A DNA stretch of 19,373 nucleotides, taken from the NCBI GenBank assembly GCA_045047305.1, contig JASFYO010000088.1, positions 1 through 19,373 on the forward strand, written 5' to 3'. Each line of letters opens with the position of its first letter. The first letter of the stretch is position 1. A model generated the notes under the pieces. The model ran no database searches. It worked only from the letters and a program-made list of their open reading frames with translations, and was not told where the DNA came from. Below are positions 1,121-16,520 of the stretch, piece after piece. Source of the DNA: Planctomycetota bacterium (GTDB lineage Bacteria > Planctomycetota > UBA1135). The translations under genes were made by a program, and so were the position numbers.

Positions 1121-1921
1121 CTACTCCGGCCAAAGCCCAGCTTTCTTTAAGTCGCGGGCTAGCGGTACATTTTTGCGCACCTTGGCGGCCACTTCTAAAT
1201 CGATCTCTGAGATGAGGAGGGTGCCGTCGTCCACGCATTCGTGCACTTCCCCGAGAGGATCGATGATGAGGGCGGAGCCCGGGAAGCGCATTGGGGGGCC
1301 ATCGCCGAGCGAAGCCTCGCCGGCCCGATTGCACGACAGAGTCCAAATTTGGTTTTCAGCCGCGCGGGCTTGGCTCATGAGATCAAAAATCGGCACTCGC
1401 GGCCACGGCCATTGTGCGCAGCAAATCAGCAAATCCGCCTCTTGGTACATGGCTTCGCGGCAGATTTCAGGGAAGCGTAGGTCGTAGCAAATAACGCCGA
1501 GGATTTTGCCGATGGGCGTTTCCACAGCTTGCGGTTGGGTTTCCCCGCGCTCGACCTGACGCCCTTCCCCCGTCGGCGAAAACAGCATGCGCTTTCGATA
1601 AGGACGTAGATTCCCCGCAGCACCTAAAAAGTGAAGCTCGTTGCTCGGCTTTTCGCCTTGGCCTCCCGGAGCCGAACCAACCACAATCAAACCAGCCTTT
1701 TCCGCGCGCGCATGAACCGCAGTCAAGGCGGCTTCGCTTTCCTCTCGCATCGCTGCAGAAAAATGCGACAAGAAAGACGTTGTCCATTTTTCGGGGAGGA
1801 CTAAAAGTGGAACGTCGGCACCGACACAACGGTCTATCGCTTCAAACACGGCCCTCAGGTTGACGTCGACCTGACCTGGGCGAACATCAAACGGAAAGGC
1901 GGCAATCTGAATCGGAGCCAT
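1121..1921 (-). CDS. Nitrilase-superfamily carbon-nitrogen hydrolase (Nit/omega-amidase-like)
   Basis: Glu-Lys-Cys triad motifs LVLPE, YRKRMLF and ICYDLRFPE, plus ARAAENQ and the C-terminal GSALIIDPLG motif. Confidence 0.92.
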   Translation of the reverse strand: MAPIQIAAFPFDVRPGQVDVNLRAVFEAIDRCVGADVPLLVLPEKWTTSFLSHFSAAMREESEAALTAVHARAEKAGLIVVGSAPGGQGEKPSNELHFLGAAGNLRPYRKRMLFSPTGEGRQVERGETQPQAVETPIGKILGVICYDLRFPEICREAMYQEADLLICCAQWPWPRVPIFDLMSQARAAENQIWTLSCNRAGEASLGDGPPMRFPGSALIIDPLGEVHECVDDGTLLISEIDLEVAAKVRKNVPLARDLKKAGLWPE

Positions 1922-1935
1922 CGAGCCTTATGTGA

Positions 1936-3162
1936 CTACTCGGAGGCGCTTGCCAGAGCAAGGAAGCGTGCGCGCACATCCTTGTAATCGACAGCGAGCT
2001 GCAATGTTTCCGTTAATGCCGCAACGTAGGCCGCCTGCTCCCCATTGGACTCCGCCTGCAAGGCATGATCATAGGCAACTTCCGCACGCGCTAGACGGGT
2101 CTTTAGCTCCTGCATGCGTAGTAAAACATCTTCCCATCCGAATCCGCCTTCATCTGCCTGGATAGCCTCGTAAAGCTGGTAAGCATGCACCATTTGGTTA
2201 TCTAACTCGTACGCACGAGCACGACGATAACGCAAACGGTTGGCCTGATCCTGGTTTGCCTCTGAAAGTTCTTTCAGACGTTGCAACTGTTGCCCAATGC
2301 CCAAGCGGCGCGCCTCATCAAGCAGGGCGTCGGCAGCTTCGATGGCACCACCGCGCGTGGCCATATCCACGGAGGCTAGAAGTGCCTCTCCGTGAACCCG
2401 ATGCTCAATCGAGGTCAGTAATTCCATGGTCTCTGCATTTCCAGGATCAAGATGCATACTGTCAAGAATCGAAACCCAAGCCGGACCGATTAATCCTGCT
2501 TCCAAATACATACGACCTAAAGAGCGGCTTGCGTCTGCGAGTTCCAGCGTGATCCCTTCCAAGCGCGATTGCGCCAAGGAATCATCGCCGAGCAAACTAG
2601 CCGCGTGCATAAAGGAAGTTCGTGCACGCAAATCCTGATGCGCACGCAGGTGATGCATACCCTGAAAGTAAAAGTCCTCGCCCATCTGCTCCTGGGAAGA
2701 CAACCACTCCTCGGTTTGGTCGAGCAATGCTTGCGCATGCTCATGCTCGGGATTCCAACTCAAGGCAAGACGTAACTCCAAAGCCGCGGCTTCTGGGTTA
2801 TTCTCCTCAGAGTATTCATAGCCCACGGCGTAATGACGCTCTGCCACTTGCAAGTCCGTACGTTTACGCAAGCGGACCAACTCTTCGGCGCGATCAGCTG
2901 GGGCAATGGTGACCAAATAATTCAGCAGCTCGCTGGCGTCGTCGGGGCGGCCAAGATGCAATAACTCTCGGGTGTTTTGCTCGAGCAAAAAGTAGCGGGT
3001 GCGCTCAATTCGACGCGCATCCTGCTGCTCAACGGGCATTCCGGTATAGATATCCAACGCCCGGTTGAAATTCGCCATACGGAATTGCTGATCCCCTTCT
3101 TCCAGGGTGACCCCTTGGCAAGACAAGGCTGAGGCCAGGATGAGGACTGTGAGGCGTCGCAT
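1936..3162 (-). CDS. Probable TPR-like helical-repeat lipoprotein of unknown function
   Basis: From ATG 3162 (GTG 3180 is an alternative start) the N-terminus MRRLTVLILASALSC has basic residues, a hydrophobic stretch and a lipobox-like Cys. The body has Ala/Leu/Glu-rich helical repeats with TPR-like turns (LSWNPEHEHA, MHLDPGNAET, VDYKDV). Confidence 0.65.
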   Translation of the reverse strand: MRRLTVLILASALSCQGVTLEEGDQQFRMANFNRALDIYTGMPVEQQDARRIERTRYFLLEQNTRELLHLGRPDDASELLNYLVTIAPADRAEELVRLRKRTDLQVAERHYAVGYEYSEENNPEAAALELRLALSWNPEHEHAQALLDQTEEWLSSQEQMGEDFYFQGMHHLRAHQDLRARTSFMHAASLLGDDSLAQSRLEGITLELADASRSLGRMYLEAGLIGPAWVSILDSMHLDPGNAETMELLTSIEHRVHGEALLASVDMATRGGAIEAADALLDEARRLGIGQQLQRLKELSEANQDQANRLRYRRARAYELDNQMVHAYQLYEAIQADEGGFGWEDVLLRMQELKTRLARAEVAYDHALQAESNGEQAAYVAALTETLQLAVDYKDVRARFLALASASE

Positions 3163-3211
3163 GAAGTTATTTTGACGCACGCGGACCTAGATGTCCTGCC
3201 TGAAATCTGGG

Positions 3212-4276
3212 TTAATTCGGCATCCGGCCAAAGGACCACAGACCAAGGCTGCCAAAAAACAGTACTGGAGCCGTTCCGGCAAGCCAAGGGCTCAGGGCGC
3301 CACGCCCGCCGAAGTCACGCATCAGCAAATCAATCACGAAATAGAAGGCACACAGGAGTAATCCAGTAGCAACTCCTTCCAGTGAACTACGGCGCTCAAA
3401 ACTGAGGGCAAAAGGCAGTCCTAAGGCCAACAAAATCAAGGGAATCAGGGGCCAGATACGCAATCCCCACAGTAATGTTTCCGCCTGGCGGTGGTCGGGG
3501 TCGCCTTTGAGGAGCGCTTTTAGGTCCACTGCGCTCAATTCCAATGGTCTCTTGTGGGCAAAATAAGATCGCTCCAAGTCGCGCGGCGCCAAGCCGGCGT
3601 GAAAATAGCGAGCGATAGGCTCTTCACCCTTATCGTAAATGCGCACACCTTTGGTCAATTGCCAGGCTCCAGATTCCCAGACTGCACGCTTGGCTAAAAC
3701 GCGTTCATCTTTGCCCGAAGCATCAAGCGCAAAGACTTCCAAGCCATTAATGACAGGCTTGTCTCCCGGGATAAAGCGTGCCGCATGCAGGCGGACATCG
3801 CCCTCACCGCGAGTCCACAGATCTAACGGCTGCCACTGAATTTGATTGAACAGTTGGCGCTGGAGAGATTCATGCGCGCGTAAATAATTGGGCAAATGCG
3901 TCTCGCGAAAAAGGCCAAGCCCAAAAGAAATCAATCCAGCGGCAAAGAAAATGGGCAAAAAGGCGCGCCAAGTGGCACGGCCAGCAACCAAAATCGGAGT
4001 CCACTCGCGATTGCGCAATAGTTGCGCCACCGTGCCAAGCCCGGCAATCAAAGTAATGTAAGGCGCAAACTGCAGCAGCAAAAACGGCAGGTTGAGCATG
4101 TAGTAGTAGAAAATGTCGCCCCCCGAAATACCTAGCGACTCCATGGCTAGGGCCTCCTGGAATTCATCGGCCTTGCCCAAAATCTCTAGCACCGAGAACA
4201 AACCGAGGAAGGCGCAGGCGACCACAACCCACTGAATGAGGAAAGCGAAAAGCACGTAGCGATCGAAGCGTTGCAT
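3212..4276 (-). CDS. lptG: LptF/LptG family permease (LptG-like), LPS export ABC transporter
   Basis: Starts MQRFDRYV. It has three N-terminal TM segments, the RNREWTPILVAG motif (cf. xxxE..AL.A.G), a periplasmic beta-rich region and three C-terminal TMs ending LSPWLAG. ATG 4276 overlaps the upstream TAA stop (TAATG), so this start is preferred over 4306. Confidence 0.82.
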   Translation of the reverse strand: MQRFDRYVLFAFLIQWVVVACAFLGLFSVLEILGKADEFQEALAMESLGISGGDIFYYYMLNLPFLLLQFAPYITLIAGLGTVAQLLRNREWTPILVAGRATWRAFLPIFFAAGLISFGLGLFRETHLPNYLRAHESLQRQLFNQIQWQPLDLWTRGEGDVRLHAARFIPGDKPVINGLEVFALDASGKDERVLAKRAVWESGAWQLTKGVRIYDKGEEPIARYFHAGLAPRDLERSYFAHKRPLELSAVDLKALLKGDPDHRQAETLLWGLRIWPLIPLILLALGLPFALSFERRSSLEGVATGLLLCAFYFVIDLLMRDFGGRGALSPWLAGTAPVLFFGSLGLWSFGRMPN

Positions 4277-5361
4277 TAGACGCGCGATACTCGGGTGAAA
4301 AGCCAACCGGCGATAGGAATCATCATCAGAGAGGGAAGCCAGGCTGCCAAGTAAATGTTGAGCGCTCCGGTTTCTTCGAAGATATCACACAAGTAGAACA
4401 CTGGGTAATAAACGAACAGAAGCAACATTAGAGATGCTGCAAACCCGGCCAGAAAACCACCTTTGCGCAGGCGCCAACCGAGTAAAGCTCCGATGAAGGC
4501 AAGCGGCAAGGTGGCAAAGCACATCGACCATCGTTGCCAATAGATAAAACGAAAATGTGCATGCCGTTCGAGAGCGAGGCTACCGTCGGCCAAAACTTGC
4601 AAAATCCGGGAGGAAGGAAGGTCTTTGGCGCGCACGCGGTCATCGTGCGCACCCTGAATCTCATCCAAGTTAAACACCAACCAAGTCTTTTCAGGATTAG
4701 AAAATAGCCCCCGAGTATCACGAAAAGTACGTAATCCATCAAAGTTAAAACCGAGATTGCTGCCGTCGACCGTCATGCGTGCAGTATTAGCGCGTAAACG
4801 CAATTCCTCTCCAGCTTTGCCCTTGCCTTCATTTGGACTCTCCAGACTAAGCAGCACATTATGGAAAACTCCCGGCCCACTACGCCCTTGCCAAGAAAGA
4901 TAAAGGCCAGCGTATTGCAGCTCACTGGATCCGGGGTTGGTGTTCTCCAACGCGGCCACCGGCACGCGATTTAGCAAAGTGCGCATTTTCTGGTAAAGGC
5001 CAGGCACCACTTCTGCGGTAATCGGGTAACTCGCTGCAAACACCAACGCCCCAGCAACCATGGCCGCTTGGAGCAAACGGAACGGTCGATAGCCTGCTGC
5101 AAAGGCCGAAATATGTTCCAAATCGGAAGCCATGCGCCCATAAGTCAGCACCACCCCAATCAACAACACCACCGGGAAAAAATATGGCAAAGCCTGACCA
5201 ACGATTAACGGCACCAAACTCAATGGCACCCAAAGCGGTGCACCTTGACTAGTCGCAGAGGCCCGGATCGCAGCGCCAAGTCCAATCAGGAAGATCACAC
5301 CAGTCAGCACCACGAACAGGCGCTGCAGGATCTCCCGTAGATAGGACCGAGCTAAAATCAT
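4276..5361 (-). CDS. lptF: LptF/LptG family permease (LptF-like)
   Basis: Starts MILARSYLRE and contains LTYGRMASDLEHISAFAAG (LptF/G signature). It has a 3+3 TM layout and LAAWLP near the C-terminus, and is the first gene of the tandem pair. Confidence 0.85.
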   Translation of the reverse strand: MILARSYLREILQRLFVVLTGVIFLIGLGAAIRASATSQGAPLWVPLSLVPLIVGQALPYFFPVVLLIGVVLTYGRMASDLEHISAFAAGYRPFRLLQAAMVAGALVFAASYPITAEVVPGLYQKMRTLLNRVPVAALENTNPGSSELQYAGLYLSWQGRSGPGVFHNVLLSLESPNEGKGKAGEELRLRANTARMTVDGSNLGFNFDGLRTFRDTRGLFSNPEKTWLVFNLDEIQGAHDDRVRAKDLPSSRILQVLADGSLALERHAHFRFIYWQRWSMCFATLPLAFIGALLGWRLRKGGFLAGFAASLMLLLFVYYPVFYLCDIFEETGALNIYLAAWLPSLMMIPIAGWLFTRVSRV

Positions 5362-5367
5362 GAGGGA

Positions 5368-5384
5368 ATCGTATCTGGTACTCT
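5368..5384. promoter_or_regulatory. Back-to-back -10-like hexamers for the divergent lptF and kinase-like genes
   Basis: Minus-strand TACGAT (5368-5373) lies 6 nt before the lptF ATG (5361). Plus-strand TGG-TACTCT (hexamer 5379-5384) lies 6 nt before GTG 5391. Confidence 0.5.
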
Positions 5385-5390
5385 AGTGCG

Positions 5391-6473
5391 GTGCATCCAA
5401 TGGCCCGAGAGAATATGGAGCGGTTCACCGCTGATGGAAAAAAGCCAGGTTCCGCCAGGCTATGTCGATTACTGCAAAGGGCGGTATCAGGTGATGGCGA
5501 ATTATTGCGCCTCTCCGCCCGGCGCTCGGTTTTTCGCCTCAAGGATGGGAAGCAAGACTGGATTTTGAAGCTAGACGCTCCAGAGCGCTCCTTTGAAACC
5601 ATTCGGGCCCGATTACGACGCCCACCCCTAGCCCGTGAAGCCCGCAACTGGAATCTCTTGTGTAAGCGCTGGCCTGAGCTCCAAACGATCCTCGGGGTGA
5701 TTGATTCAGAGCAACTGGATGCCTCTCGCGGTTGTTTTGCACGACTTTGGTTCGAAGGACGTCGTGGCCACATTTGGACGCTCGAGGACTGTCCGGCCGT
5801 CGGGGCTGGCATGGCTGCTCTTCATCAACTCGGATGGACCGATGTCGACCTTAGCCCGGAAGACTTACTGCTCGATGCTTGCGACCGCCTTCTCCCGCTC
5901 GACCTCGGCCATGCCCATGTCGGCGCCATTCCGGCCACCCCTGCCGACCGATGTCGTGATTGGGTGCACCTGCTCGGTGGATTCAGCTTAATCCAACGCC
6001 GCGCCTACACCCGCCCAATGCTGGATGCTTATCGCCAATCTTTGCGCTTGAGCGAATCCAACGAAGAGCTTTGGCGTCAGGCCTTGCTTTGGAGCAGTGC
6101 CATTCTGCATCGGCAGAGTCGACGATGTTTACGTCAGACGCGTGATTTTGAACCGCAAACCGATGGCATCTTGCGCAGCGAAAGGATTCCAGAAGGAGAA
6201 CGCTGCATAGTAGAAGGCGATGTCTCTTCCAATCCCCGCGATACCTTCCGCTTACTTTATGAGCTGGAACTGCACCATGTAGCCGCGCTGCGTCCAGTGC
6301 ATTTACAGATTGCGGACAGCGGTGATTGGGTAATTGAGGGCGTCATCCCCGATTCCTCCGAGACCTTGCAAGCGGACTTGCTCGCAGCCGGTTACGCCTC
6401 TACCGAGAAGGTGGAAGGCTGGCTTTTGGATCCGCGTGAATTAGAGCGGGTGAAACCGCAAGCCAAGCTCTAG
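5391..6473 (+). CDS. Lipopolysaccharide kinase (Kdo/WaaP/InaA)-like protein with a degenerate catalytic loop
   Basis: Kinase-fold hallmarks: RRSVFRL...WILK (beta3 Lys), AREARN (alphaC Glu), MAALHQLGWTDVDLSPEDLLL (catalytic-loop equivalent) and PLDLG (DFG equivalent). It is adjacent to lptFG. Confidence 0.65.
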   Translation: MHPMARENMERFTADGKKPGSARLCRLLQRAVSGDGELLRLSARRSVFRLKDGKQDWILKLDAPERSFETIRARLRRPPLAREARNWNLLCKRWPELQTILGVIDSEQLDASRGCFARLWFEGRRGHIWTLEDCPAVGAGMAALHQLGWTDVDLSPEDLLLDACDRLLPLDLGHAHVGAIPATPADRCRDWVHLLGGFSLIQRRAYTRPMLDAYRQSLRLSESNEELWRQALLWSSAILHRQSRRCLRQTRDFEPQTDGILRSERIPEGERCIVEGDVSSNPRDTFRLLYELELHHVAALRPVHLQIADSGDWVIEGVIPDSSETLQADLLAAGYASTEKVEGWLLDPRELERVKPQAKL

Positions 6474-7696
6474 AGGAACCAACGTTTTCCCGCGCCGGAG
6501 AGGGCGAAGGATTTCCAGTAATCGGCGGCCGGTAAGCGCCAGAAGGATTCGGCCCAATGGGCTTCCATCTCGCGGGCATACCAACGGCTCAAGCCACGGT
6601 CGACGCGGAGGTAATCCACCTCGGTGATTTGCGAAGGATAGGCCCGCATCGCCTCATCCTTCCGTGCGCGTAAATCCTCATCCATGGCAACATTTCCTGG
6701 GATGGGCAAAGGCTGCCACAGGCCACTCGCGGCAATTTCAACCTGGTTGAGGGAAGTTGGCCAAGCTGCTTGGAGCACGCGATTGGCCTCGAAGTGATCG
6801 AGGTTATTGTCCGCCCACCACACGCTGTGCACGCGCTGGGGGCGAAAATCCTCGAGTAAGGTTCGCAGCTGCAAAGTCCAAGGCCCCTTCACCTTCAGCT
6901 GGGTTTCAGGCGCATCGAGGAAGTGATAATCCGTCACTCCGAGAATATCCATCGCACGTTTAGCTTCTTTATGCCGAATCGCAGCGGACTCCGATTCACT
7001 GACGGTGCTCACTCCTTTACGGCCGTCGGTTAGCCAAATCATGCGCACTTCTGCTCCCGCCTTGGTGGCCTCGGCGATGGCGGCTCCACATTGAAGCACA
7101 TCATCATCAAAGTGCGGCATCACCACAGCCACGCGCTCGACCGGAGCCATGGCTGCCGGTAATTGGATCAAATCTATCTGCATCAAACTGCGTTGGTAAT
7201 CCAAAGCAGTTGCGAGATGATGGCGGTATTGCAGGGCGTCGGCGCGATTGGGGCGAAACTCTGCGCGCCACGATCCACGCAGGAGATGGGCTAGGCGTTG
7301 TGCCGGTTGGATGAGAAAGGCTTCGGCACCACCGCGTCCGACATGGCGGAAAGCGGAGCGATAACCGCGCAATCCGGCGGCGGCATTTTCAAACTCCAGT
7401 CCCGTTTCCTGATTGCCAGACTTCAGTAGGAGGTTGGGCCAGACCGGTACATCGCGCTCATACAAAGCGACAGGGAAGCTCGACGATAGGTCGCGGAGGA
7501 TACGCAGCAGCGAATCGGTTTCGCTGCCCGGGGCCGGGTAAGGAGCGATGAGCAAATCGCAACCGGCTGTCCACGGCATAGGGGCGGCAGCCCCTTGAGC
7601 CTCACACAATTGAAATGCCCCAGGAATCCACGAGCGCGGATCACCATGTAAAAAGCCAGGCTTGAGCGTGGTAAGAAACTCCCCCACCTCTGGCAT
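6470..7696 (-). CDS. PIG-L/LmbE family deacetylase with a degenerate N-terminal extra domain
   Basis: The C-terminal domain has VVMPHFDDD..CG, WLTDG, IRHKEAKRAMDILG, NLDH, K..AMRAYPSQ and AESF. The start is uncertain (ATG 7696, ATG 7747 or TTG 7750). Confidence 0.82.
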   Translation of the reverse strand: MPEVGEFLTTLKPGFLHGDPRSWIPGAFQLCEAQGAAAPMPWTAGCDLLIAPYPAPGSETDSLLRILRDLSSSFPVALYERDVPVWPNLLLKSGNQETGLEFENAAAGLRGYRSAFRHVGRGGAEAFLIQPAQRLAHLLRGSWRAEFRPNRADALQYRHHLATALDYQRSLMQIDLIQLPAAMAPVERVAVVMPHFDDDVLQCGAAIAEATKAGAEVRMIWLTDGRKGVSTVSESESAAIRHKEAKRAMDILGVTDYHFLDAPETQLKVKGPWTLQLRTLLEDFRPQRVHSVWWADNNLDHFEANRVLQAAWPTSLNQVEIAASGLWQPLPIPGNVAMDEDLRARKDEAMRAYPSQITEVDYLRVDRGLSRWYAREMEAHWAESFWRLPAADYWKSFALSGAGKRWFL

Positions 7697-7755
7697 GGTG
7701 AGAATATTCTGCGGCCGACGCAGCGGGCACGGAAGGATGCGCCCCATCAAACCAT

Positions 7756-9426
7756 CTACTCCATATACCCGAGAGCCTTCATGGTCTCAATGAGCTTGGC
7801 ATCGTCGTCTTCGACATCGCCGCCCATCTCGCGCGGTGCGAGTTGCACGAAATCTTCGCGCACTTGTACAGGGTTGGCAGCGCGATATTCAGGAGTGAAA
7901 CAATCCTCCATCACGCGACCATCCATGTAATCCTCAACCGGAAGACCTAGCAAATGCAGCATGGTGGTGGCCATATCGGCGATTTGTGGCCCGGTGACGC
8001 GTTCCCCTTGCTTGATGATGCCTTTGCCTTCCCAGCCATAGATGCCTTGGGTGCGGTGCATCGCGGGGCGGCCCTCGACTGCTGGCTCAGCAACTACCGG
8101 GTGCAACGGCGATGGCGACATATTGCACGCGGTTTCCTTGGTGACACATTGAATGTCAGGAGCAATGTGCAACTGCTCCCCTTCCCAGAGATCTTCGCGC
8201 TTGAAGGCCCGCGCAATAATCTTGGCGCCATCAGGAGCCCGCATCTCTACAACCTTAGCGATGATTTCATCGCGCAAGGCTTCGTACTCAGCACCAGCCT
8301 TGACGATGCCTTCCGGCTCGCGACCTTCCAAGTTCATCAAAACGATGTCTTCTCCGCCAGAAAAACTGGAATACGCACGGGTCTTTGACCAATCAATCAT
8401 CTCCATGATGGTCGCCTCTTGGCCTTTGCCTAACTTGCGACCACGCTCGGTGAGGATCTTCAAAATGCCACTACGGCGCAAGGCACCATTCCACTTCTTC
8501 TGCATCCACAGCTTGCGCTTCATCGATTCGGCACTGGACTTTAGTACCAAGTAACCGTTATCCAGCAACCACTTGTTCATGTAGTAGCGATAAGTAATGC
8601 GCCCAAAACCGTGGTCAGAGCAAGTGCCAAAGACGGCCTCCCCTTCCATTTTGAGAGCACGATCGCGAATCCGGCCAAAAGCAGTGTCGACGGCGGTGTA
8701 GACGTCGGCGAGCAAATCTTTACGCGCCTCCCACTTGCCTGGGTTGGCCTTCTGCCATTGCGGATCCTGGTAGCACCAGGCTTGATGCGAGGTGAGGTCC
8801 ACCTGGCGAAAAACCAATACGAAAAAGTCTGGATCGTGATGATCTAAGACGTGTTCGCCCATGCGCGTGATTTGCTCAATCACGTGAAACATGCTCTTCA
8901 CCGCGGCACCTTCCGATGCGCTGTGAAACAGCATTTCAGGCTCATTGTCGGCAGGGACATCGCCGATGGCGGCCTCCAACTCCTGACGCAATTCAGGCGG
9001 ATGAATGAAGTCTGAGTGACGATCAGGGGTAAGCAAACCACCAATCATGCAACCGTTCACTTTTTCTACCGGGAAGGTTAAAGGCACCGTAATCGAGGCG
9101 ACCTTCTTGCCAGCCTCACTTGCAAGACGAAACACACTCGGCACTTGCACCGATTTCATGGAGACCACGGGGCGTTGATAACTACCATGCCGCTGTTCGC
9201 GAAAGAAGAACACTCCGTGCTTGCCCGGATGTACGCCTGTCATAAAGGAACTCCACGCGAGAGAAGAGTTTGGCGGCACCGTGCTGGTCAAAGGACCACA
9301 GCATCCATTTTTGACCATGGCTGCCAGATTGGGCAACTTGCCCGCTGCGATCATCGGGTTGATGATATCCCAGGTGGCGCCGTCGATGCCGGCGATGATG
9401 ACGCGCTTGCGAGGGGTCGAGGTCAT
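7756..9426 (-). CDS. Alkaline-phosphatase superfamily type I phosphodiesterase/nucleotide pyrophosphatase-like protein (COG3379-like), cytoplasmic
   Basis: Metal and nucleophile motifs GIDGATW, STVPPNSSLAWSSFMTG..PGKHG, DLTSH, SDHGF and AMHR, with a C-terminal MKALGY tail. No signal peptide. Confidence 0.88.
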   Translation of the reverse strand: MTSTPRKRVIIAGIDGATWDIINPMIAAGKLPNLAAMVKNGCCGPLTSTVPPNSSLAWSSFMTGVHPGKHGVFFFREQRHGSYQRPVVSMKSVQVPSVFRLASEAGKKVASITVPLTFPVEKVNGCMIGGLLTPDRHSDFIHPPELRQELEAAIGDVPADNEPEMLFHSASEGAAVKSMFHVIEQITRMGEHVLDHHDPDFFVLVFRQVDLTSHQAWCYQDPQWQKANPGKWEARKDLLADVYTAVDTAFGRIRDRALKMEGEAVFGTCSDHGFGRITYRYYMNKWLLDNGYLVLKSSAESMKRKLWMQKKWNGALRRSGILKILTERGRKLGKGQEATIMEMIDWSKTRAYSSFSGGEDIVLMNLEGREPEGIVKAGAEYEALRDEIIAKVVEMRAPDGAKIIARAFKREDLWEGEQLHIAPDIQCVTKETACNMSPSPLHPVVAEPAVEGRPAMHRTQGIYGWEGKGIIKQGERVTGPQIADMATTMLHLLGLPVEDYMDGRVMEDCFTPEYRAANPVQVREDFVQLAPREMGGDVEDDDAKLIETMKALGYME

Positions 9427-9487
9427 GCGGTTAAGGAGGGGTGCAAAAGAACCCTCAAGTGCAGGATACTCCGTCGGAGCACACTTT

Positions 9488-11017
9488 CTATGACCTTCCT
9501 AGCTTCCGTTTCAGGATATTCACCACTGCCGGATCCACTTGCTTAAGCGTAAGGCATGCAATCGCGTAAACCACCCCACCTACCGCCGCACCAAGAAAGA
9601 CTCGCTGATCGAGATTCAAGGCGAAAAGGACTGCGATCATGCCAGCCGTAAGCGCGTAATAAGGCACAGTTCTGACCAGTATGGGAAGAGGATTACCAAA
9701 CATACGCCCGACTAGAACCATCTTGATGACGAATTCTAAGCAAGCAGTCAATGCCGATGCATAAGCTGCGCCAAGAATGCCATAACGCGGAATCAAAATG
9801 ATATTGCACACCACACTGCTGGCGAGAATGGTGATGCCAACCAGTGGAATGCGTTTCTCCAATTCCTTCGAGCCAAGCATCAGCATGCCGACTGGGCCGC
9901 CGAGGCAATCGACCACCATGGCGAATAACAACACACGAAGCACTTCTGCAGTGCTGTGCAGCACTCCCATTTCTGGCGCGCCGTAGCGATAGGACTCACC
10001 GAACCATCCACAGATGATGTCGGAGTAAAGGAAAATCCCTGCTGCCATGGGGATGACCCAAAAAGCCTGCCAGCGAACTGCACGCCCATAAAGCGCATGC
10101 GTTGCAGCTTTGGCATCGCCGCCGGCCGAGGATTCGGTTAGGCGAGCAAGACGCGGGAACAAAGCGGTGTTAAACGCCATGGTGAAAGTTTGGAACACAA
10201 TCGCCACCCGCATGGCTTGGCCATAAAGGCCCCGCGCAAAATCAACATCTCCGGCCTTCCCATCAATGAGACTCACGAACAAAAAGCCCATGAGGAGCAC
10301 GTCGATGCGATTGCGCAACATGCGTAAAATACGGAATAGAGCCACGAAACCGGAGTTCTTAAGCAAATCCCAGGCACGCTTTGGGGTGGAACTGGGAATC
10401 GATTCGTTCGGCAACAAACGTTTATGTACCAGACGCGGCAACAACCAACCACGAAGACTGGAGCCGACTAAGAACATGGTGAAGATGCCAAACAGGCGCT
10501 GGTCCTCCGGCAGCACCATCATCGCAATGGTGGCACCGCCAGCACGCAAAAGGCCAGTGAGGATTTCCACCATCGCTGGCATCGCCATGCGCTCATGCCC
10601 CTGAAAGAGGGATTCACCAAGTGATCCCATGGCATCGGAGAGGGTGATGCCCATGACTAGCAGGAAAAGAATCAGGCGCTGGTCGAGCGGCTCGCCGTTG
10701 TACAGACTATCGATAATGAGGAATCCACCAAGCACCAAAGCCGCGGCAAGCGTTCCCATCCACATCGCGAGGCGGGCGTCTGCATAAAGGCGAGCAGACT
10801 GCTTGGGGTTACGCGCTACTTCGCGGGTAACGATGAGGGGAATGCCAAAACTAGAGATCATGCTGCCTAAAAACAGCAGGCTTCCCATGAGGGTGTAGAC
10901 GCCATTGATGTCCGGATTGACGTAACGCGGCAGGATGAAACCGAACATCGCGTAGATGGAAGTTCCGAGGAACTTCGCACCGGTCAGAAACAAAGTGTTG
11001 CGCGCAAGACTACTCAT
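9488..11017 (-). CDS. Wzx-type oligosaccharide/polysaccharide flippase (MOP superfamily)
   Basis: Starts LARNT and contains FGIPLIVTREVAR, ALFPRLAR and NIILIPRYGILGAAYAS, which are typical Wzx motifs. About 12-14 hydrophobic segments over 509 aa. Confidence 0.9.
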   Translation of the reverse strand: MSSLARNTLFLTGAKFLGTSIYAMFGFILPRYVNPDINGVYTLMGSLLFLGSMISSFGIPLIVTREVARNPKQSARLYADARLAMWMGTLAAALVLGGFLIIDSLYNGEPLDQRLILFLLVMGITLSDAMGSLGESLFQGHERMAMPAMVEILTGLLRAGGATIAMMVLPEDQRLFGIFTMFLVGSSLRGWLLPRLVHKRLLPNESIPSSTPKRAWDLLKNSGFVALFRILRMLRNRIDVLLMGFLFVSLIDGKAGDVDFARGLYGQAMRVAIVFQTFTMAFNTALFPRLARLTESSAGGDAKAATHALYGRAVRWQAFWVIPMAAGIFLYSDIICGWFGESYRYGAPEMGVLHSTAEVLRVLLFAMVVDCLGGPVGMLMLGSKELEKRIPLVGITILASSVVCNIILIPRYGILGAAYASALTACLEFVIKMVLVGRMFGNPLPILVRTVPYYALTAGMIAVLFALNLDQRVFLGAAVGGVVYAIACLTLKQVDPAVVNILKRKLGRS

Positions 11018-11032
11018 GGTCGCGGCAATCGT

Positions 11033-11752
11033 TTAGCGGAACAACGGAATCAAAGTTGGCCGAAGTTTCTGAAAGAGGTCGGCGGTTGCGCGGGTGTCCC
11101 GCAGGCAGTATTCGGCGATTTCATCATAACGACCAGCGCGTGCTTTTTGTGCCACCATGGAACCATCCATCTTGCCTTTGGGAGATTCTACGCCGAAGCG
11201 TCGGCACCAATAGTCCAAGGAATAGGATTCACGGGCGGCACCCATGAAATTCAGGACCTCCATTAAATCGCAGTGGTCACGCACGCTATAGCGATATCCA
11301 GCGAGTTGACGACTTGGAATGACATCTAGCATCGCAGAGCGAGTAAGTAGTACCGGGCCGTCGTAGCCGCGACCGTTGTAGGTGACCACCGTCCCCCATT
11401 CTGTAGCTAAACGCCAGAACTCCGTAAGTAATTCGCGCTCATTACCGCGAAACACTTTGGTGCCTGGGACTTCATCAAAGTCCTCCCACTTGCAGCCCGA
11501 ACCGTGAACCAAAACAGCGCCCTGATCTTTCGCAAGATTCCACATTCCAATCGAAACGACCCGTCCGAGACCGCGCACTAAGGCAAGACGGTTTTGAATA
11601 TCTTCCTCAGTACCACGCTTTTTGCGCGCCATTAAATAATGACGCGTGGCCTCGTCGACCTCTTCCCATTCCAGGCCCGCAACTTCGATATCGAAAGCAA
11701 CAATGGGAGAACGAAGGTTGGCTTGCGCGCTAGTAGAGTCGTTAGATGCCAT
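11033..11752 (-). CDS. Stand-alone DEDDy 3'-5' exonuclease related to the PolB exonuclease domain
   Basis: ExoI FDIE, ExoII TYNGRGYD and ExoIII EYCLRD, plus HCDL and SLD..C..FG..SPKG.MDGS.V, which are typical of the DNA_pol_B_exo2-like family. Confidence 0.87.
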   Translation of the reverse strand: MASNDSTSAQANLRSPIVAFDIEVAGLEWEEVDEATRHYLMARKKRGTEEDIQNRLALVRGLGRVVSIGMWNLAKDQGAVLVHGSGCKWEDFDEVPGTKVFRGNERELLTEFWRLATEWGTVVTYNGRGYDGPVLLTRSAMLDVIPSRQLAGYRYSVRDHCDLMEVLNFMGAARESYSLDYWCRRFGVESPKGKMDGSMVAQKARAGRYDEIAEYCLRDTRATADLFQKLRPTLIPLFR

Positions 11753-11754
11753 AA

Positions 11755-12240
11755 TTACGCGCCCTCATTTTCCGGAGGAGTATCGCCATCATGCACAGAA
11801 AGCACCGGGACCTTAGCCATGCGCACCACTCTTTCTGCGGTCGAGCCGAGTAGTAAATGCGCTAGGCCGCCACGTCCGTGGGTAGAAATGACGATGACCG
11901 AGCAATCGAATTCCGCTGCAGACTCAACCACCGCCACCGACGGCTTGCCTTTTTCAACCAAGTGCGCTTCCACCGTTGCTCCAAGCGCGCGGAGCTTTTC
12001 AGCTGCTGCCTCTAAAGCTTTGCGAGCCCCTGCACGAAACTCCTCACGGTAGTTGCCGAGATCAAGTGCACCCGGTGCCATATAGTCGGCGAAGACTGGC
12101 GCCGTGGCGACCAAATCATCTTCTAGCGCATGGATTAGATGGACGATGCCTCCATTAGGAGTCGCAAGCTTTGCGGCCCATGGATAAGCGTGCTCCGCCT
12201 GGGTGGAGAAATCTGTAGTAAGAAGGATGCGAGAAAACAT
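11755..12240 (-). CDS. Universal stress protein (UspA family)
   Basis: Starts MFSRILLTTDFS and carries the ATP-binding motif IVISTHGRGGLAHLLLGSTAERVVRMAKVPVLSV. Confidence 0.95.
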   Translation of the reverse strand: MFSRILLTTDFSTQAEHAYPWAAKLATPNGGIVHLIHALEDDLVATAPVFADYMAPGALDLGNYREEFRAGARKALEAAAEKLRALGATVEAHLVEKGKPSVAVVESAAEFDCSVIVISTHGRGGLAHLLLGSTAERVVRMAKVPVLSVHDGDTPPENEGA

Positions 12241-12291
12241 CTTCCACGCAGAATACCGCTTCCGGGGCGAGATGGGGCCGACCCCTTGGGT

Positions 12292-13746
12292 CTACTTAGC
12301 GTCGATTTTCTTTTGCACTTCCTCGTCACCGGAAGTTACGTAGCCAAGCTCTGCCATAGAACTCAGGAAATCATGATTTGCACCTTCCGTGGGCAAAAGC
12401 GGTCGGGTTGCAGCACGATAACCAACACGATAATCCTTGGGCGCTGGCGAGGGATTAGCCTCTTGCCAAGCTTTAGTCATTAAATGCCGCAAGGGCTTAC
12501 CCTCCATGTAGCTTCCACTAGGGAGGCCGAGCAGGTCAAGCAAGGTTGGGGTGATGTCATAGATGCTGCCGAGAGTGCGGTCCCCCCGGGGCTGTAGGCC
12601 GAAAGCTTGCACTCCTAGGCCGGATAAAATCATGACTCCTGGAGGCGCGAGATCGTGACCGCCGCTTTGCACATTATCGATGTCATTGACATTCGCGACA
12701 CCCATGCCGTGATCGCTGATAATCATCACGATGGCATTCTCCGGCAGTGCAGCAACCACCTGACCAATCCACTCATCCATTTGCTCATAGGCCTCATCAA
12801 TGTGCGAGCCGAGGCGCTTGACCTGATCTTCGGGAACTAGGTAGTTGTAGTTCTGTGGAGCACGGTAACGCCAAAAGTAGTGACCAGCGACATCGGGCAA
12901 GCCGAAGTAAAGCAGGTTCAAGTCGGCAATTTCTCCACCTTCCAGCATCTGCAAGAAAATCTTTTCATGAGTGCGATCGGCATGAAAGACACCACGGAAG
13001 AAACGATCACGTAGGAATGCGAACTTCCATTCTTGTGGAGTGGTACCAAAGCGTTGATTGAACTCCTGAACCAAGGGGCCTTTCGGACGTCCGTCGTAGA
13101 GAATGTCAGAAATGGAATCGGCAAGCTGTTCAGGGTAGGTCAAATCCGGTAAGCCGTCGGCCATAACCAAGGGCTTCCACAACAAAGAGGCCTGGGCCTG
13201 CGCGGCATAACTTGCAACGATACGACTATGTGGGACATGCTCAGCAGGCCAAGAAACCCACCATGCGACCGAGTTAACGCTGCGATCACTCTCACCGGCG
13301 AGGTTCCAAATCGCAGGAACCTTGCGCGAATTGGAAGTATAAGGCAGCGCGTTCTTGACCGGTTTGTTGTTATCCCCAATTTCCATGAAATAGCGAATAC
13401 CATGGTCTGGGACTTTGACTCCCGTGGCAATCGAAGTCCACAGAATCGGTGAGTAAGTGGGGCGGTCGGTGAATAGATTTCCCGCGATTCCGCTATCGCT
13501 AAGCTTCTTTAGGTTGGGCAATTTACCTTGCGCGAACAGTGGCTCAATCACATTCCAGGTGAGTCCATCCACGCCCAGTACCACGACGGGCGGGCGTTCT
13601 GTAAGCCGCACTTGTGGCCCCATCGGCGCTTGGGTTGCGGCTTCCACCGTCGTTGGCGCGGGCTCATCCCCACCGCATGCAGTGAAGAAAAACAGACACA
13701 AGGCCGCGAATCCGTATGTGGGTTGCAGTTTGGCGAAGAAGCACAC
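12292..13746 (-). CDS. Alkaline-phosphatase superfamily phosphodiesterase-like lipoprotein
   Basis: Lipobox LFFFTA-C-GG followed by a low-complexity linker. Motifs GVDGLTW, PTYSPILWTSIATG, DVAGH, SDHGM and GGH, with a C-terminal MAELGY. Confidence 0.85.
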   Translation of the reverse strand: MCFFAKLQPTYGFAALCLFFFTACGGDEPAPTTVEAATQAPMGPQVRLTERPPVVVLGVDGLTWNVIEPLFAQGKLPNLKKLSDSGIAGNLFTDRPTYSPILWTSIATGVKVPDHGIRYFMEIGDNNKPVKNALPYTSNSRKVPAIWNLAGESDRSVNSVAWWVSWPAEHVPHSRIVASYAAQAQASLLWKPLVMADGLPDLTYPEQLADSISDILYDGRPKGPLVQEFNQRFGTTPQEWKFAFLRDRFFRGVFHADRTHEKIFLQMLEGGEIADLNLLYFGLPDVAGHYFWRYRAPQNYNYLVPEDQVKRLGSHIDEAYEQMDEWIGQVVAALPENAIVMIISDHGMGVANVNDIDNVQSGGHDLAPPGVMILSGLGVQAFGLQPRGDRTLGSIYDITPTLLDLLGLPSGSYMEGKPLRHLMTKAWQEANPSPAPKDYRVGYRAATRPLLPTEGANHDFLSSMAELGYVTSGDEEVQKKIDAK

Positions 13747-13750
13747 GCTT

Positions 13751-15973
13751 CTATTCTACCGGAATACGGACAGGTACTGGGCGCTTGCGTAAACGTCTGC
13801 GAATGCCCCACCAACCGAAGAACAAAACTGCCCAACCAGGGATTTCACCACTTAGGTCAAAGGGCCCTTCCCGCTCGAAGTCAGCAGAACATCCGCCTCC
13901 ACCGCCACCCGACGCAGTCGCAGGACTGGAGGTGCCATTAAAGGTGAAACCTGAAGAAACTGCGCCTTGCCCACTGTTGGTCAAAACCATCAGTCCAAAG
14001 TTTCCGGCGTTGGCATTGCTGTCGGTGATAGCTTCCACTTCGGTCGCGGAGATTAGGTCCATTAAGGTGGCTACCTTGCCACCTTGGCCACTAGTGGGGT
14101 CGACGCCGAACTTGACTTGAGCAATCTCAGAAAGCGACACACCAAAAATTCGCACCAAAGTACCGCCAGCTTTCGGCCCGTTCGATGGAGTAAAAGAATT
14201 GATTCTTGGGTCTGGCGTGGCCACGTAGGTGAAGCCGTTACTCACCAAAGTGTCAGCGGATGCCGGGTTACGCAGAATGATATCGACCTGGCCGGCGGCG
14301 TGTGCGGGCGCAATAGCCTGCATGATTTTGGTGGTGACGAAGGTGGTGGTCGCGGAAACTCCGTCGATGAGGACTTGGGTTTGGGCACTGAAGTTATTAC
14401 CCACGATGTAAAGGCGCGTTCCTCCAGAGGATTGCCCTGCAGTTGGCAAAAGATCTTGGAACACGGCCGAGCCGGTGAAGGTAAAACCACTGGACAAGGT
14501 AGTCTGCTGTCCATCGCGATTGTGAATCGCAACATCGACCAGACCGGCAGAAGATACAGGAGTCGTGACGGTAAGAGTCGTGGAACTCACAAAAGTTACG
14601 TTTGCCGCCTCCACTCCACCAAACAAGACATAAGCCCCATTCTGGAAGTTAGAGCCACTCACAGTGAGGGTTTCGCCGCCAACGATACTACCCGTGGTAG
14701 CACTCAAACCAGAAATGGTGGGTGCATCCGCGATGACCTCCACCACTCCACTAGCGACCTCTAAATCACCGGCAGAATTTCGCAAGTAGAGATCGTAGGT
14801 TCCCAGAGTTGCGCCGCTCGATGCCGTCACCGTACCGCGCACAAAAGAAGTGCCACTGCTCACGTTACTAATGCTTAGACCAGCAGTTTTAGTGGTCATC
14901 GTCATAGCACCGTTTTCAAAACCAGTACCGAAAATGGTCACAATGCTGGCCTGGCCACGCTTCAGCAGTACAGCGCCATTTGCGTTATCGCGCATTGCGA
15001 TATCGTCACCGACATCTAAGATTCCCACATTCAATGTGGCGCCGGCATTCAAGGTATGCGTGGTTGGTGAGTCAAATCCACCGTAGAAAGCTGCTCGGAA
15101 ATCTGTTTCCACCGCACCATTTCCAGTCAAATGTGCCGCCGTCATTCCACCTTCTAAAGGCGTGACGTGAATCCAGTAATTGGCGGCGGGGATGCCCTTA
15201 ATGTTGAAAATGCCATTATTGTTGGTCGTAGCCATACCCATCAAACGGCCATCGCTAGCCCGTATTGCGCTGACGACAGCACCTACGATTTTATTCGAGC
15301 CGGTTAAGCGACGGATGGTTCCAGTCAAACGAGATTGTCCACCAGCACTCGCGATGGCGATGGCTCCGGCCTCCTCATCGGGAGTCAAAGACCTATGCAA
15401 CCATTGAGAAGTACTCACAAATGGCCACATCGTCCCGGCAACTTGCGGTGAATGATCGAGACCAACAAAGTGACCTATCTCGTGGGTCAAAACATCTTGA
15501 ACATCGAAGGTTCCAGGTGTGCCATCGGTGGAGAAATTGAACTGCGAACCGTTAAACAAGATATCGGCGTCAAGAATAGCCCCGTTTGCCGTATTGAAGG
15601 AAATCGGAGTGATGGCAACGATTCCACTCCCGCCAGGGAAGTACCCGGATGAGTTGTTCTCATCAAAAGCAACGATGTGGGTGCTATTGGGTGCAGGATC
15701 CACTGACGTCGTGTCGGCACCACGTGTGAAGTTCAACGTGGATCCAGTGACGTCTTCCCACACCTGAAACCCATGTTCAATCGCAGGGATAAAACTCTCA
15801 TCCGCGATGTTATCCGAACCCGTAGTGTTGAGCTGCCACGTAATGTTCGAGTTCGACCACGCCAAGTTTTTGTTGTTGATGCGAATGCGCACATACGCAT
15901 CTGCAGCACTGAAGCTCACTCCAAAAACTACGAGTAGGGCAAGCGCACTTTTCCATGTGCGAGGACCAAACAT
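13751..15973 (-). CDS. Secreted matrixin-like (metzincin) zinc metalloprotease with a beta-sandwich/carboxypeptidase-regulatory-like domain, IPT/TIG repeats and a C-terminal Gly6-Cys/TM/basic anchor
   Basis: Zinc motif HEIGHFVGLDH (15452-15484), Met-turn TMWP and ILDADILFN. From ATG 15973 (13 nt after the upstream stop) there is a signal peptide ending AADA. The ORF track start at 16069 would overlap the upstream gene. Confidence 0.88.
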   Translation of the reverse strand: MFGPRTWKSALALLVVFGVSFSAADAYVRIRINNKNLAWSNSNITWQLNTTGSDNIADESFIPAIEHGFQVWEDVTGSTLNFTRGADTTSVDPAPNSTHIVAFDENNSSGYFPGGSGIVAITPISFNTANGAILDADILFNGSQFNFSTDGTPGTFDVQDVLTHEIGHFVGLDHSPQVAGTMWPFVSTSQWLHRSLTPDEEAGAIAIASAGGQSRLTGTIRRLTGSNKIVGAVVSAIRASDGRLMGMATTNNNGIFNIKGIPAANYWIHVTPLEGGMTAAHLTGNGAVETDFRAAFYGGFDSPTTHTLNAGATLNVGILDVGDDIAMRDNANGAVLLKRGQASIVTIFGTGFENGAMTMTTKTAGLSISNVSSGTSFVRGTVTASSGATLGTYDLYLRNSAGDLEVASGVVEVIADAPTISGLSATTGSIVGGETLTVSGSNFQNGAYVLFGGVEAANVTFVSSTTLTVTTPVSSAGLVDVAIHNRDGQQTTLSSGFTFTGSAVFQDLLPTAGQSSGGTRLYIVGNNFSAQTQVLIDGVSATTTFVTTKIMQAIAPAHAAGQVDIILRNPASADTLVSNGFTYVATPDPRINSFTPSNGPKAGGTLVRIFGVSLSEIAQVKFGVDPTSGQGGKVATLMDLISATEVEAITDSNANAGNFGLMVLTNSGQGAVSSGFTFNGTSSPATASGGGGGGCSADFEREGPFDLSGEIPGWAVLFFGWWGIRRRLRKRPVPVRIPVE
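13940..14725 (-). repeat. Three tandem IPT/TIG domains within the protease (protein-level repeat; boundaries approximate)
   Basis: The units begin PTISGLSATTGSIVGGETLTVSGSNF, VFQDLLPTAGQSSGGTRLYIVGNNF and PRINSFTPSNGPKAGGTLVRIFG. They end GFTF, GFTY and GFTF. Confidence 0.85.
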
Positions 15974-15986
15974 GGATGCTTTAGGT

Positions 15987-16520
15987 TCAGCCTTGGCGCT
16001 GGACTTCGGCGAAGATTTCTGCGAGAAGAACATCATAGTCATCGACCTGCACGAAACCCTCCTCTCCACCGCGACGAATGACTTTTGCAGCGCCAGAAAC
16101 GGAGGAAGCCTGGACCGTCATCGATCCAGCTTGAAGTCCGACAGGCATGCGCCATTGTTTGGTTTGAGAGGGTTCGCTGAGGAAAAGGATGCTGCGATCC
16201 CCGACCTTGAGGTCGGGCATGCCCGGCAGGACCAGTCCTTTACCGGCAACCTCGCCACCAGGAATTCGAACTTCCTGAATCGAGGCCATTGCACCTTTTA
16301 TCGGCGTTAGGGTCGAAAAGCTGTATCGCGTTTCAATCGTGCCATCGTCCAGGAGTACGCTGGTAGCGTCCAAGACTTCGATTTCGCAAATGCGCTCGGC
16401 ATTGCCCACTAATGTGGCTAAATCGGGTGCTGTTTCAGTGACAGAGGATGCATCGGCGCTGCTCAGGGACAAGCCTGAGAGTGCTCCGATGAGGATTGCG
16501 CAGGTGATGGGGTGACGCAT
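15987..16520 (-). CDS. Secreted hypothetical protein with a possible TIMP/NTR-like OB-fold
   Basis: Signal peptide ending SADA. The pattern L..LV.NAERI.EIEV...TRYSF......KG...PGG......PG.P.L.VGD..ILFL is beta-rich. It lies immediately upstream of the protease. Confidence 0.75.
   Translation of the reverse strand: MRHPITCAILIGALSGLSLSSADASSVTETAPDLATLVGNAERICEIEVLDATSVLLDDGTIETRYSFSTLTPIKGAMASIQEVRIPGGEVAGKGLVLPGMPDLKVGDRSILFLSEPSQTKQWRMPVGLQAGSMTVQASSVSGAAKVIRRGGEEGFVQVDDYDVLLAEIFAEVQRQG

Follow-up and report, generated by a model that had tools for sequence, protein, structure and literature searches.

How is a secreted matrixin that lacks a propeptide kept under control, and what does the small, likely secreted protein encoded directly ahead of it contribute? 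The question arises from two genes on the minus strand of contig JASFYO010000088.1 of a Planctomycetota bacterium, a stretch of 19,373 nucleotides that we call the window. One gene encodes a multidomain protease and the other a small protein, here termed the partner; their features are collected in Table 1. A preliminary description of the DNA had read the two as a bacterial counterpart of matrix metalloproteinases (MMPs) and their tissue inhibitors (TIMPs). With moderate confidence, guided by predicted structures and by analogy with TIMPs, we favour the reading that the partner is a disulfide-free, TIMP-like cognate inhibitor of the propeptide-less matrixin and would act through its residue 1 in the active-site cleft. 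The fold and the cleavage of both signal peptides are predicted; the catalytic motif, the lack of a propeptide, the gene coupling, the fusions and the N-terminal register were read from sequence.

Predicted TIMP/NTR fold of the partner

The partner matches no Pfam or NCBIfam family at E ≤ 1, and profiles of its family find nothing among PDB sequences at E ≤ 10. None of 116 family members matches the TIMP family (PF00965) at E ≤ 0.1, and one matches Pfam NtA (E 2e-4). AlphaFold2 models were made of the full-length partner (predicted local distance difference test, pLDDT, 78) and of the mature protein (116-row alignment; pLDDT 87.4, predicted template-modelling score, pTM, 0.80). Both consist of a helix, a barrel of five-strand type and a C-terminal helix, with low confidence for mature residues 1–4 in the model of the partner alone.

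A search of 48,161 representative chains with the full-length model returns NTR-module proteins at every rank from 1 to 13. The Z scores are 10.7 for NtA, 9.4 for N-TIMP-3, 9.2 for the PCOLCE NTR domain and 7.4 for TIMP-1, C345C domains are also among these 13, and generic OB folds reach at most 7.2. The mature model aligns with NtA at Z 11.0 (root-mean-square deviation, rmsd, 2.7; 111 residues aligned), with N-TIMP-3 at Z 9.8 (rmsd 3.0; 114 residues) and with TIMP-1 at Z 9.5 (rmsd 3.0; 113 residues). Foldseek rows for the mature partner are all TIMP, NtA or NTR down to rank 19 (best E 1.9e-3), and neither model gives a row at E ≤ 0.001. The nearest named clusters in the ESM Atlas are TIMP, NtA and NTR (0.91, 153 shared features), which we take as a lead only. 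The predicted structures thus support a TIMP/NTR fold and back the TIMP/NTR pattern that the preliminary description had seen in the small protein. Its description of the partner as Cys-less is not strictly correct, as the mature chain has a single cysteine, C45, which lies in strand 1 and not at the N-terminus.

The resemblance to the N-domain of animal TIMPs (I35, PF00965), the inhibitors of M10A MMPs, covers the predicted NTR/OB fold over TIMP residues 2–125 (Z 7.5–9.8, rmsd ~3 Å), secretion, a family N-terminus in the register of Cys1, and a matrixin as partner enzyme. The differences are as clear. Identity is 8–12%, the C-terminal three-disulfide domain is missing, the whole 153-residue chain aligning to TIMP 2–125, and the partner shares its locus or its polypeptide with a single cognate protease, which itself has neither a propeptide nor the structural-zinc histidines. 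Membership of the TIMP family was rejected because the partner has no Cys-X-Cys, disulfide set, C-terminal domain or PF00965 match.

The same scores bear on a different function. The partner could be a non-inhibitory accessory, namely a folding or export chaperone, a stabiliser or a substrate adaptor, that binds outside the active site as other NTR binding modules do. We consider this rather unlikely. In its favour, agrin NtA, the PCOLCE NTR domain and complement C345C, for which MMP inhibition is not established, score as well as TIMPs or better, and the near-invariant residues of the partner family are glycines, one Thr and one Pro, the N-terminus not being among them. These three occur as disulfide-bonded domains within larger animal proteins; unlike the partner, they have no gene coupling to a protease.

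The protease begins at a predicted activated-MMP N-terminus

The window protease has the HExxHxxGxxH motif and the Met-turn of a matrixin, scores 51 bits with Pfam Peptidase_M10 (cut-off 24), and has MMPs as its nearest solved structures. A profile of 116 catalytic domains matches MMP-12, -16, -14, -8, -13 and -1 and karilysin at E values of 3e-21 to 8e-18 (best 60 of 128 matches). Karilysin has a short prosegment of its own. The histidines that we take to ligate the MMP structural zinc are not kept, as non-His profile positions stand there in three alignments of the protease profile.

A conserved Trp gives a ruler for the N-terminus. It is residue 13 after A-D-A in the window protease, with 12 residues ahead of it, residue 10 in Phe79-form MMP-8 (9 ahead) and approximately residue 90 in pro-MMP-1 (about 89 ahead), the two MMP distances being taken from chain offsets in profile alignments. 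Because the distance is close to that in Phe79-form MMP-8 and falls far short of pro-MMP-1, the predicted mature protease starts at the N-terminus of an activated MMP. The cysteine-switch motif PRCG is absent from the window protease and from all 119 paired proteases described below, and the absence of a propeptide proposed at the outset holds. By a crude scorer, cleavage is predicted 7–33 residues ahead of the Trp in 119 of 119 paired proteases (mode 12), and the first mature residue is Tyr or Phe in 47 of them.

Signal peptides of both proteins were called from sequence pattern, and each leader is hydrophobic and ends in A-D-A as first described. The two genes are co-oriented, as had also been stated; the spacing of 13 nt given for them rests on an ATG that is less conserved than one further upstream. 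This inner ATG lies in frame 50 nt inside the partner gene at nine of nine same-genus loci (the window's own counted), against two of nine with an ATG at +13/+16 downstream of the partner gene. For this reason the genes probably overlap by 50 nt, which would give the protease a 47-residue leader with a long basic n-region. A start at GTG 16069 was rejected since the codon is not conserved. The choice of start codon does not affect the mature N-terminus.

The C-terminal tail of the protease is likely a membrane anchor or a sorting signal, judged from its sequence, and no NCBIfam sorting-signal model scores above its cut-off in any of nine tails searched. Assignment to the myxosortase-dependent metalloproteases MXAN_2677/2678 (NF041905) was rejected, as the window protease scores 97.5 bits against a curated 250 and matches no MYXO-CTERM model.

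Coupling of partner and protease genes

Partner homologues were collected from 32 of 41 related genomes and 122 of 301 genomes of the phylum. All 42 related-genome matches (40 loci) and about 110 of 185 phylum matches were examined, which left 145 domains after removal of duplicates and two split fragments; long open reading frames (ORFs) were chosen deliberately among the phylum matches, so that fusions are over-represented. The linkage expected from the window is borne out in these Planctomycetota domains, with 119 directly preceding an HExxH metzincin, nine fused to one and 17 in neither arrangement. The paired and fused cases span 35 GTDB families by hand count, and the motif is present at 30 of 31 GTDB-named loci. 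Named close homologues are all labelled Planctomycetota or Planctomycetes, as are 29 of the 31 GTDB loci. The window's own genome (2.83 Mb) has only two ORFs with HExxHxxGxxH, each directly after a partner-family gene, a pairing that exceeds chance.

In the second of these pairs (G000:C27:13436-15258, plus strand) the partner begins A|C-I-E-E and has another Cys close to the final loop of the barrel, which, on sequence, is possibly a TIMP-like tether. Its close relatives are without both cysteines.

We also counted from the protease side. This search gave 130 matches in 121 genomes, of which 129 were examined. Forty-five were pairs already known, the genome's second pair brings these to 46, and 26 of the remaining 83 have an adjacent partner after profile iteration, a total of 72/129. 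A strict one-to-one obligate trans-prodomain is unlikely and was rejected because the other 57 matrixin domains have no detectable adjacent partner. That many similar proteases occur without one also argues that the partner is not needed in cis for folding, as a chaperone-like accessory would be.

Outside Planctomycetota, coverage extended to one Pseudoalteromonas locus, one record labelled Myxococcota and Atlas clusters. The gene order is the same in cultured Pseudoalteromonas shioyasakiensis (WP_217877327.1, WP_217877326.1), where the pair lies on an 899-kb replicon (L261:3914-7146) and both genes are annotated 'hypothetical'. A tblastn search of phages with one downstream-type partner gave no match.

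Two kinds of fusion were found. At six loci and in P0032 the partner and protease domains are joined by a plain linker, a prodomain-like arrangement that suits the accessory function. Three others (L071, L075 and L076) read partner, transmembrane (TM) helix, basic loop, second hydrophobic segment, A-x-A and catalytic domain. Signal peptidase would be expected to cut these chains into a protease with a free N-terminus and a membrane-anchored partner, in 1:1 ratio and with both N-termini free; an accessory leaves the internal signal-like segment unexplained. A homologue search aimed at longer proteins yielded one fusion in 7,999 scored candidates.

Co-inheritance gave less. Inter-protein covariation across 116 pairs (effective sequence number, Neff, 88) has a top z of 5.3, against 4.3–5.5 in ten shuffled pairings, and hence no usable signal. 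Pairwise identities of partners and proteases correlate (r 0.75), which shared ancestry explains.

N-terminal register of the partner family

Positions were numbered from the first barrel strand (I44 in the window partner). Position -17 corresponds to TIMP Cys1, because the structural alignments set residue 4 of the mature partner opposite residue 2 of TIMP-1, -2 and -3. Across the 145 partners, Ala is found at -18 in 66% and at -20 in 52%, and the consensus at -17/-16/-15 is Thr/Ser/Ala, Thr/Ser/Val and Val/Leu, with Thr, Ser or Ala at -17 in 82%. A register-blind cleavage scorer places the mature start exactly at -17 in 71 of 145 and between -19 and -16 in 100. The C-terminal part varies in length from 48 to 250 residues while the N-terminal length is fixed, a contrast that an accessory role does not explain.

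The preliminary description had put the partner's N-terminus at nearly the same distance from the first helix as TIMP Cys1. In the family mode the predicted start is exactly in register; the window partner is two residues longer. In 23 of 25 members of the window's family the first two mature residues are Ser/Thr, the start lying at -19 (11), -18 (7) or -17 (5).

By eye, most of the divergent partners that the protease-first search brought in hold to this register, and in 4 of 27 the TIMP Cys1 position is occupied by Cys. These four (L220, L223, L227 and L232) start with Cys exactly at -17 (C-V-I-P-R) and, from sequence, may be lipoproteins or direct thiol-zinc blockers. Overall, the family-wide register fits zinc-site binding by residue 1. 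It is suggestive only, since NtA and partners without a nearby protease share it, and neither fold nor register proves inhibition.

A possible mechanism and the evidence against it

TIMPs are described as binding zinc through the N-terminal amino group (PMC9890683). By analogy, partner and protease would be made together and exported by Sec, and signal peptidase would create both an already active protease N-terminus and a free alpha-amino group on the partner. The partner would then bind the protease 1:1 with its free N-terminus in the active-site cleft, where residue 1, usually Thr, Ser or Ala, would ligate the catalytic zinc by backbone atoms as TIMP Cys1 does, and the Gly-Gly hairpin would substitute for the disulfide-locked ridge of TIMP. 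Inhibition would protect periplasm and envelope until display of the likely membrane-tethered protease and loss of the partner by release or degradation. In the window lineage the Ser-Ser N-terminus would sit 0–2 residues further out, a slack that may be tolerable for a segment without disulfide tethers.

Several observations weigh against residue-1 inhibition. The best structural match of the partner is NtA, a laminin-binding module whose start is also within one residue of the partner register. Cys occurs at TIMP position 1 or 3 in none of the 145 partners. The window partner, with its predicted start at -19, extends two residues beyond the start of TIMP-1, and TIMP-2 with one extra Ala is cited as inactive (PMC5410052, citing Wingfield 1999), which argues against literal TIMP geometry in the window partner unless the untethered segment absorbs the slack. 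Three members of the window's family (L030, L040 and L098) have an N-terminal membrane anchor in place of a free N-terminus; two of them also have a C-terminal TM segment. Many of the 57 unpaired matrixins are apparently propeptide-less; some of the 57 sit where a contig ends or have a partner elsewhere in their genome. In the sole published bacterial pair the protease is reported to cleave the TIMP-like protein (PMC8235301).

The 17 partners without a metzincin directly downstream also count against it. The contig of one stops inside a protease; another stands before a protease whose motif is broken, a third before a motif variant, a fourth comes after its protease, and a fifth has a protease two genes on. 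Eleven have no protease seen nearby (two orphan clades, together with L106 and L040). The orphan clades share the N-terminal register, with -17 found in 12 of 15 outside the window's family.

One orphan clade (L091, L092, L101, L111 and L140, also L149) has a long C-terminal helix, and five of its members are immediately followed by a gene that looks by eye like folB or folB-folK. The other (L070, L072, L087 and L088) has Pro/Thr-rich tails. At L100:2068-4812 the partner is followed by a matrixin whose zinc motif has lost its second and third His to replacement. At L208, L210 and L139 the partner gene is downstream of the protease, the order known from Listeria, and the hairpin is shortened in L208 and L210.

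Comparison with known systems

Potempins of Tannerella forsythia are described as upstream, co-transcribed OB-fold inhibitors of their proteases with Ki values of 2–10 nM (PMC9890683). Potempin A and karilysin resemble the window pair in that the gene for a small OB-fold protein immediately precedes or overlaps that of an MMP-like protease. They suggest that the partner might inhibit by pushing a surface hairpin (Gly-Gly ... Gly-x-Pro) into the cleft, and not by residue 1. PotA is reported to inhibit an MMP-like enzyme with a loop of its OB fold (PMC9890683), the hairpin glycines are 99–100% conserved in the partner family, and L030 and L098, with anchored N-termini, still adjoin proteases. 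We nevertheless hold this to be improbable: it does not account for the fixed N-terminal register, and the divergent partners L208 and L210 have lost part of the hairpin. The same source describes potempins as lipoproteins that are otherwise unrelated to TIMPs (PMC9890683). The window partner has no lipobox in its sequence, and no potempin appears among the best 50 structure-search rows, which counts little either way.

Listeria monocytogenes Mtz-Tim (LMRG_00713/00714) is a pair of a metzincin and a Phyre2-predicted TIMP-like lipoprotein that the metzincin cleaves (PMC8235301). Both systems have adjacent, conserved genes for a secreted metzincin and a predicted TIMP-like protein. The published description of Tim, on which our comparison relies, places the protease first and the cut ~50 residues into the lipoprotein, associates the genes with phage, and in the parts drawn on here reports no inhibition (PMC8235301); in the Planctomycetota pair the partner is first and the fold begins at the mature N-terminus.

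The Listeria case raises the prospect that the partner is a protease substrate, or an effector with a target of its own, which is released by cleavage as Tim is by Mtz. The orphan clades agree with this, and the two extra residues of the window partner could lie across the cleft like a substrate. We give it only a slim chance, as the partner has neither a lipobox nor a ~50-residue linker, its domain beginning at the mature N-terminus, and the window has no phage context, the neighbouring genes encoding LptF/G, a flippase-like protein and phosphodiesterases.

The favoured inhibitory reading has a further bacterial parallel in the serralysin inhibitors AprI/Inh, which are likewise co-transcribed with a metzincin and are said to bind in a TIMP-like way (PMC8235301).

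The locus

Table 1. Features of the partner and protease genes, and loci of the polyprotein fusions.
Feature	Coordinates	Strand	Basis or remark
Partner gene, 177 aa, predicted TIMP/NTR fold	15987..16520	-	ORF list
Predicted signal peptide of partner, 24 aa, A-D-A end	16449..16520	-	Sequence pattern; family A-x-A at -20/-18 from first strand
Mature partner, 153 aa: S-S-V-T-E start, helix, OB-type barrel, Gly-Gly hairpin, C-terminal helix	15990..16448	-	Model and conservation
Multidomain matrixin (M10) gene	13751..16036	-	Probable ATG 16036 (761 aa); alternative ATG 15973 (740 aa)
Predicted signal peptide of protease, A-D-A end	15896..16036	-	Sequence pattern; 47 aa, or 26 aa from ATG 15973
Catalytic domain from Tyr1, without propeptide	15338..15895	-	PF00413, E 1.9e-13
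Zinc-binding motif HEIGHFVGLDH	15452..15484	-	Met-turn Met codon 15428-15430
Carboxypeptidase-regulatory-like beta domain	15155..15328	-	PF13620, E 1.5e-6; 28.9 vs 32.3 bits, below curated cut-off
Three IPT/TIG domains, low end approximate	13934..14722	-	PF01833, E 1.4e-32, 3 stretches
Gly-rich linker, Gly-Cys-Ser, short hydrophobic segment, basic tail	13754..13912	-	Sequence
Polyprotein fusions	L071:2247-4697, L075:1397-3502, L076:1684-3885		Two genomes, one family

Downstream of the protease, the co-oriented genes at 1121-13746 (minus strand) are envelope-related and ordinary. They encode two phosphodiesterase/sulfatase-like proteins, Usp, a 3'-5' exonuclease, a flippase-like protein, a PIG-L deacetylase, the LptF/LptG pair, a TPR-like protein and a CN hydrolase. 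A 360-residue ORF on the opposite strand (5391-6473, plus), between lptF and the deacetylase gene, has no Pfam match and looks kinase-like by eye. A promoter and terminator scan gave no excess over shuffled sequence.

Implications

A metzincin/TIMP-like pair in bacteria has already been put forward in print for Listeria, by authors who state that they found no previous report of TIMP-like proteins from bacteria (PMC8235301). A search of mostly open-access literature found no account of the partner-first family. The present analysis contributes counts across the phylum from both the partner and the protease side, a quantified N-terminal register, the clade with Cys1, the polyprotein fusions and a corrected protease start.

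The origin of the TIMP family has been placed in eumetazoans (PMC10755359). A broader proposal, which we put forward tentatively and think doubtful as it stands, is that a large family of TIMP homologues, free of disulfides and so far unannotated, exists in bacteria and uses residue 1 to block cognate matrixins that lack a propeptide. Its members would occur as separate genes, linker fusions or signal-peptidase-split polyproteins, in some cases with Cys1. Under this proposal the TIMPs and NTR modules of animals would derive from a protease-inhibitor module of bacteria and would not have arisen in eumetazoans. A widespread bacterial family that combines the predicted TIMP fold and N-terminal register with a cognate matrixin makes it testable where the TIMP/MMP pair came from. 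The family could supply disulfide-free scaffolds for MMP inhibitors, and it offers a possible account of how propeptide-less bacterial matrixins are controlled.

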